This document shows positions 1,886-1,928 of a stretch of DNA of 7,411 nt, in pieces (the first letter of the stretch is position 1; each line of letters opens with the position of its first letter). The stretch comes from Octopus sinensis (Eukaryota): assembly GCF_006345805.1 (NCBI RefSeq), contig NW_021828478.1, positions 1-7,411 of the forward strand. The letters are read 5' to 3'. A program made the translations under genes and the position numbers. The notes beneath the pieces are model-generated. The model worked only from the letters and a program-made list of their open reading frames with translations. It ran no database searches and was not told where the DNA came from.

Positions 1886-1928
1886 TTACAGTTGAAAAGG
1901 TCTCAAACGGCCGAAACCGGTACTGAAA
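1886..1928 (+). ncRNA. Minimal type I hammerhead ribozyme motif with U3-A8 core variant
   Basis: Helix I TTACAG(1886-91)/CTGAAA(1923-28), one mismatch; core TTGAAAA(1892-98); helix II GGTC(1899-1902)/GGCC(1909-12); GAAA(1913-16); palindromic helix III ACCGGT(1916-21); GUA triplet ending 1922. Confidence 0.7.

Follow-up and report, generated by a model that had tools for sequence, protein, structure and literature searches.

The locus described here raises the question of whether the minimal hammerhead ribozymes of Penelope-like elements (PLEs), weak in vitro and dispensable in a single reconstituted system, cut in cells. The window, by which we mean the whole 7,411-nt stretch of Octopus sinensis DNA that was analysed (assembly GCF_006345805.1, contig NW_021828478.1, positions 1 to 7,411), carries on its plus strand a type I minimal hammerhead with the core UUGAAAA at 1886-1928. 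We confirmed from the letters themselves that this motif, first named in a sequence-only reading, is real, and that each of its elements sits where that reading had placed it. The exchange of C3-G8 for U3-A8 is no novelty, being already in print. The accessible text of Perreault 2011 (PMC3088659) presents natural hammerheads with the same U3-A8 covariation as already proven active in vitro and describes them without PLE context or a dimer-type motif; for the PLE minimal hammerheads of Schistosoma, U3-A8 was described by Cervera and de la Pena 2014 (PMC4209133; ~1,300 matches), whose supplementary row S. mansoni(4) has a UUGAAAA core. The published PLE motifs cut poorly in vitro, and in the available part of that paper the authors state that there is no in vivo evidence (PMC4209133). 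What our analysis adds to the known swap is genomic evidence for cutting in vivo; the PLE context and a predicted mispair of U3 with A17 had both been missed by the earlier reading.

Helix I (5' strand 1886-1891, 3' strand 1923-1928) is seen in the folds; it pairs CAG 1889-1891 with CUG 1923-1925 over 3 bp and is extendable by UU/AA (1886-87/1927-28) across an A.A mismatch. The catalytic core U3 U4 G5 A6 A7 A8 A9 (1892-1898) is followed by helix II and its 6-nt loop UCAAAC (1899-1912), supported by the folds and by the alignment of copies. Here GGUC (1899-1902) faces GGCC (1909-1912) as G-C, G-C, U.G and C-G, with G10.1-C11.1 as the closing pair. The 4-bp helix with a G-C closing pair noted earlier is therefore present in the window, but its U.G is a minority state: most copies have GACC and four Watson-Crick pairs, with U-A there. 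G12 A13 A14 (GAA, 1913-1915) and the self-complementary ACCGGU (1916-1921) come next, the latter predicted by a two-strand cofold to form helix III between two copies. The predicted cut, GUA/CUGAAA, lies between A17 at 1922 and 1923; elsewhere in the family, copies have U6 and further RNAs fused at this point. Set against the hammerhead core rule (C3 U4 G5 A6 N7 G8 A9 / G12 A13 A14 A15.1), all positions are kept except C3/G8, which become the Watson-Crick pair U3/A8 of the published variant; the cleavage triplet GUA is an NUH site, and A15.1-U16.1 is in place. The extra nucleotide that the published PLE minimal consensus has between A9 and 10.1 is absent, GGUC following UUGAAAA directly.

The alignment to Rfam HH9 is weak but keeps the core in register; it scores 19.9 bits, where the gathering score is 52 (E 0.0073, 146 nt searched), and this model describes longer canonical motifs. 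Scanning the entire window with Rfam yielded only this weak HH9 match and microsatellite-driven miRNA matches. The monomer fold is no more stable than shuffles (z -0.33) and gives no signal as evidence for the motif. Our own motif descriptor, by comparison, matched the window twice, at 1886-1928 and at 1024-1107, against 0.003 matches per resampled window (300 resamples).

The window holds several further features. The second descriptor match (1024-1107, plus strand) is a minimal hammerhead whose core is the canonical CUGAAGA; its helix II is long and branched, its palindrome is ACAUAUGU and its site is GUA. It is high-copy (1,300 candidates, 40 scored), with inverted pairs present. The stretch at 6905-6945 (plus strand, ending at (TA)n 7035) has a stem-loop, GAAACGU and, in (TA)n, its 3' end; it resembles another PLE stub, one that lacks a standard core. 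A longer repeat is present in two direct, diverged copies (88-93%) at 3821-4167 and 4703-5020, ~870 nt apart. Directly before U3, a pyrimidine-rich tract with TTACAG (1886-1891; also upstream of the core in locus L031) resembles a 3' splice site; helix I is where the intron of Drosophila Penelope ends, according to the accessible text of PMC4209133.

A search of the genome with positions 3, 7 and 8 left free gave 2,441 matches and none in the reversed control, and the motif is thus multi-copy. U3 and A8 occur together in 2,419 of these, C3-G8 in none; the 15 matches without U3 (12 C, 3 G) all have A8, and the seven without A8 (5 G, 2 U) all have U3. Among the first 100 of 3,094 matches to a search anchored on the helix I flanks (control 170), 99 belonged to the family, with 96 U3/A8, two C3.A8, one U3.G8 and no C3-G8. 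As the sequence-only reading had supposed, U3-A8 is the family state of the PLE hammerhead, not decay; neither of two findings that would have told against that reading, a single-copy sequence or a C3/G8 consensus, was borne out. It also dominates the ACCGGU-type hammerheads of this genome: motifs ending GAAACCGGT number 7,977 for U3-A8 (control 129), 401 for C3-G8 (control 51), 330 for C3.A8 (control 90) and 212 for U3.G8 (control 73), and a pattern barring the second helix II base of the main family still finds 3,932 U3-A8 matches (control 100). Standard CUGANGA searches, already suspected of overlooking this family, would pass over ~95% of the paired motifs of ACCGGU type here. Most ACCGGU-type motifs in octopus are U3-A8; for Schistosoma the published figures are ~1,300 against ~2,000 (PMC4209133, in part).

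Sister families keep U3-A8 with different helices, and their reverse transcriptases (RTs) are 42-60% identical over the main matched stretches (30 loci read). Helix sequences turn over between families with pairing mostly kept, and the other catalytic positions are all conserved; in an older subfamily, A-U replaces G-C as the closing pair of helix II. At L074, L075, L080, L084, L100 and L289, the best-fitting parse of a U3-A8 family gives just 1-2 bp to helix II and 7 bp to helix I. In other U3-A8 families (L076-L078, L088, L102), the basal position of helix II is a U.U mismatch, a feature with which the axolotl motif is described in the available text of PMC7229834.

Does this dominance mean that the pair itself is selected? 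An alternative reading accepts that the ribozyme cuts and holds U3-A8 to be unselected, an A+T-biased mutation that was fixed once in an ancestral element and has been tolerated since, mismatches included. The 99% U3-A8 within the family is no proof of selection: it reflects descent from source elements, and the copies are not independent because they inherit from few sources. The U3-A8 families are related, which permits a single origin. Watson-Crick states nevertheless far outnumber mismatches after controls, and most of the mismatch matches listed have the look of single mutants derived from U3-A8 or C3-G8 families. Among the first 100 C3.A8 matches, 22 belong to an unrelated repeat, CTGATAATTGATG, which we take to resemble antisense LINE coding sequence; it has no helices and was ruled out as a C3.A8 hammerhead family.

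A sister repeat bears on both sides of this question. This 360-bp tandem, retrozyme-like repeat (L103-L152) has C3-G8, C3.A8 and U3-A8 subfamilies ~7-12% apart, and the first 100 of its 125 matches comprise 74 C3-G8, 15 U3-A8, 10 C3.A8, one A3.A8 and no U3.G8, so that both paired states exist as whole subfamilies. In a tree with positions 3 and 8 masked (51 of 54 rows, unrooted; L107_p1827, L133 and L135 dropped for short homology), the U3-A8 copies separate (100/97), and a branch of its own unites 10 of the 11 C3.A8 copies (99/94). The unrooted tree allows the change between C3-G8 and U3-A8 to be read in either direction, and since the C3.A8 subfamily has spread, mobility does not strictly require the pair; both points suit the A+T-bias reading. 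G8 of this repeat is part of a CpG, through which the C3.A8 mismatch may have arisen. On this evidence we regard the A+T-bias reading as unlikely, though deserving of weight. Selection on the pair, which the sequence-only reading derived from the joint change of both bases, is supported across families only, where paired states dominate; within the family, descent suffices. The C-G, C.A and U-A subfamilies of the 360-bp repeat provide a natural series for testing swaps of the tertiary pair.

The window copy (1872-1976, plus strand) is the 5'-truncated 3' end, or pseudo-LTR stub, of the host element, ~105 nt that form its last part. A search with these bases in the 2.72-Gb genome gave 776 candidates, of which 40 were scored; identity to the other scored copies is 93-98%, with a common 3' boundary and variable 5' ends. 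We put the family at ~3,000 copies. They share a 3' end of a T run and CATATAT, sometimes with an extra tail of 30-40 nt, so that the family has two 3' ends differing by this tail, and their 5' ends are ragged. Most lie within (TA)n, often as close inverted pairs. The C run and (TA)n that had been noted downstream are present at 1977-1985 and from 1986, yet neither is part of the family: the (TA)n microsatellite (1986-2189) is the insertion site, in which most other printed copies end too, and the C run (plus strand) was ruled out as a family feature, being absent from all other printed copies, which have the T run and then CATATAT. It is either a mutation or an assembly error. An unrelated short high-copy repeat, which we take to be SINE-like, adjoins the 5' end of the stub (1674-1871, minus strand); it has an inverted copy at 5231-5428 (91%) and adjoins the family at L002 as well. 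The window copy is probably inert, with no partner motif and no upstream element sequence.

Twelve regions between paired motifs were read, and most have RT and/or GIY-YIG frames. Pfam matches above cut-offs are RVT_1 (PF00078, E 3e-8) and GIY-YIG (PF01541, E 2e-5), and at L158 both domains share one 748-codon frame. The linker before GIY-YIG, CGRPNCGIC (CX4CXXC), fits the CX2-5CxxC rule common to Neptune and Nematis. The motif stands in sense to the ORF at both ends of a 4.3-kb unit at L031 (minus strand, 4951 and 626), accompanied by an inverted truncated copy. Pseudo-LTRs, inverted truncated copies and a 30-40 bp tail, the features of EN+ PLEs, are all found. By this layout the host element appears to be a Neptune-type EN+ PLE, with a linker that, being common to Neptune and Nematis, does not tell these two apart. 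Coding copies rule out a non-LTR retrozyme, that is, a short non-coding tandem unit, for the window family; the sister 360-bp family fits that description. Tandem retrozymes are described in PMC7229834, and bioRxiv 10.64898/2026.07.22.740005 ties them to PLEs, with no mention of cephalopods in its accessible part.

The family resembles the Neptune and Nematis PLEs of Craig 2021 (PMC8557442) and the Poseidon element PAc of Frangieh 2024 (PMC11167929), as far as their accessible text goes, in its RT, CX2-5CxxC linker, GIY-YIG domain and pseudo-LTRs, and likewise in its inverted truncated copy, 30-40 bp tail, microsatellite targets and repeat-borne hammerhead. It differs from them in an upstream ORF of 411 codons that overlaps the RT frame at -1 (L031 3560-3620, minus strand; also L033, L034, L036, L041, L158 and L159). 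The overlap contains an in-phase U UUU UUA and is a predicted programmed frameshift; no stable structure was found downstream of this heptamer. An optional frameshifted ORF1 is known from PLEs (Craig 2021, PMC8557442, in the part available). With the S. mansoni Cercyon PLEs, as described in the accessible text of PMC4209133, the octopus family shares a type I minimal motif in PLE terminal repeats, a short helix I, a palindromic helix III of the dimer, U3-A8 covariation, mostly lone truncated copies and close opposite-strand pairs. Unlike the Schistosoma motif, that of octopus has no extra base between A9 and helix II, a helix II of 4 bp, a palindrome of 6 nt, and A17 (PMC4209133). In our literature search, which covered a minority of subscription journals, we found no paper describing cephalopod hammerheads and none describing U6 chimeras with Penelope or hammerheads.

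The evidence for cutting comes from copies that begin at the predicted cut. Sequence 3' of the cut occurs without the preceding A17 in 70 matches, against 2,720 with A, and in the first 30 loci of these 70 the junction lies exactly at the cut in 14. For comparison, we read 30 loci for each of the two bases next to the cut, out of 69 matches in one case and 73 in the other. Foreign joins other than fold-backs were found at 12 of 30 loci at the cut against one of 60 at +/-1 (p 3e-6, Fisher test; counting independent sites, 10/28 against 1/58, p 3e-5), and with fold-back joins included at 14 of 30 against nine of 60 (p 0.002), all classes having been called by eye and not blind. The +/-1 loci are mostly point mutants, microhomology deletions and fold-backs; on a second inspection by eye, L191, L192, L218, L239, L247 and L251 proved to be point mutants or microhomology deletions, and they do not count among the joins.

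At three of the 14 loci with a junction exactly at the cut (L175, L177, L179), Rfam U6 runs to model position 105 and is followed directly by CTGAAA, with no insert. A pattern search for U6 joined to CTGAAA returned nine matches, eight of them true at seven loci and one a chance match (C12:64171038), which was rejected as a chimera; TTTTT, the U run of the mature U6 3' end, is present at all eight. The fused loci carry flanks of the old, the middle and the youngest subfamilies, and the joins therefore represent at least three events. Allowing 0-30 free bases between the partners (31 offsets), four of four U6 joins fall at the cut, and we found none upstream of it. U6 is also fused at the predicted cut of a second U3-A8 family (L289, an inverted pair); a third (TTGACAA) gave no U6 join. 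U6 joins are not specific to ribozyme ends, because most dispersed copies among the first 100 of 207 U6 3' ends join other repeats; many are fused to the start of common short repeats (including L256-L261), and a tandem cluster of ~28 U6 copies lies at G000:C1:141.83-141.96 Mb. The informative signal is the fixed position of the U6 join within the PLE family, not U6 fusion itself.

Joins of other kinds fall at the same base. At L304 (G000:C6:21665600-21666900), the predicted 5' product of another hammerhead is joined to the CUGAAA 3' product, both at their cuts and with 1-nt microhomology. Its donor, also seen at L307-L312, is a repeat family with hammerhead anatomy, the core CCGAAGA (U4C) and the palindrome ACUGCAGU; the piece of it at L304 stops at its GUC. 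At L166, L169/L170, L181 and L187, the cut site is fused to sense-oriented sequence from inside the element, a join that RNA fragments would be expected to give after circularisation or religation. The motif is covered by contigs of four sequencing runs, none recorded as RNA, and contigs cannot reveal RNA ends. From these junction traces in the genome, cutting in vivo by the U3-A8/GUA variant is likely.

How such a motif might act is suggested by its predicted fold. Two copies cofold into a dimeric hammerhead through ACCGGU at -21.5 kcal/mol, against -14.0 kcal/mol for two monomers, and two motifs may accordingly pair through this palindrome and complete helix III, possibly with the assistance of a protein. 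U3-A8 would substitute for the C3-G8 tertiary pair. The predicted folds also pair U3 with A17, which is worth 2.2 kcal/mol per dimer; this mispair may parallel the C3-G17 pair, a proposed inhibitory trap in hammerheads (PMC3884650, in part), and cleavage is probably weak because U3 can pair with A17 too. Hammerhead cleavage leaves a 5'-OH, which would here lie at CUGAAA. In the accessible text of Moldovan 2019 (PMC6789731), U6 carries a cyclic phosphate that RtcB ligates only to 5'-OH ends. An RtcB-type ligase may sometimes join the CUGAAA end to cyclic-phosphate RNAs, such as U6 or the 5' product of another hammerhead, and the element RT, starting at the tail 55-90 nt downstream, would then copy the chimera into DNA. 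Like the RtcB-made U6/LINE-1 chimeras, those of octopus combine U6 ending in a U run with retroelement sequence and have probably been retrotransposed; the LINE-1 partner is variably truncated, whereas the octopus partner starts at one fixed base, the predicted cut, and the insertions have PLE form, with inverted pairs, tail and (TA)n (PMC6789731, in part). We consider it likely, from sequence comparison, that the window holds a 3' stub, inserted in (TA)n, of the terminal repeat of a Neptune-type PLE with a U3-A8 minimal hammerhead, and that RNA of the full-length element self-cleaves after GUA.

A second alternative keeps the fold and removes the cleavage. The structure would be retained for another job, such as binding an element protein or shaping RNA for the RT, the CUGAAA end would be made by a protein nuclease or mark where transcription starts, and template switching would account for the U6 joins. 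The low activity of minimal motifs, the predicted U3-A17 mispair and the mobilised C3.A8 subfamily of the sister repeat agree with this account, as does PAc, which inserted in vitro without need of its ribozyme and at whose cut no reads end (Frangieh 2024, PMC11167929, in the part accessible); the PAc hammerhead is C3-G8 and needed protein to cut. Template switching would yield identical DNA, yet it still requires an RNA 5' end at this very base. Such an account must further accommodate joins that fall precisely on the hammerhead position in two U3-A8 families whose downstream sequences differ, a third hammerhead whose 5' product also ends at its cut, the absence of T-run microhomology and of a splice AG at the cut, and the retention of all remaining catalytic positions across families. 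We find it improbable. That the motif is a chance match, or a C3-G8 hammerhead decayed by two independent mutations in a single copy, has its only footing in the low Rfam score and the featureless monomer fold, and is refuted, with negligible probability left to it, by the thousands of genome matches without a single C3-G8 and by the empty reversed control.

Self-cleavage by the U3-A8 hammerhead thus remains our preferred explanation, and it has a wider reading. U3-A8 minimal hammerheads, the dominant type in this genome, probably cut in vivo despite the U3-A17 pairing, and their products would enter a common ligation pool, in which U6 and the products of unrelated hammerheads are joined at their cuts and then retrotransposed by the PLE machinery. 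The joins precisely at the base predicted, seen in three subfamilies as well as in a second family, are fossil evidence of cutting, even with a U-A core and GUA. If this reading is true, chimera junctions would offer a genome-only assay for ribozyme variants that are active in the germ line, and the ligation pool would be a route of recombination between ribozyme-bearing elements.
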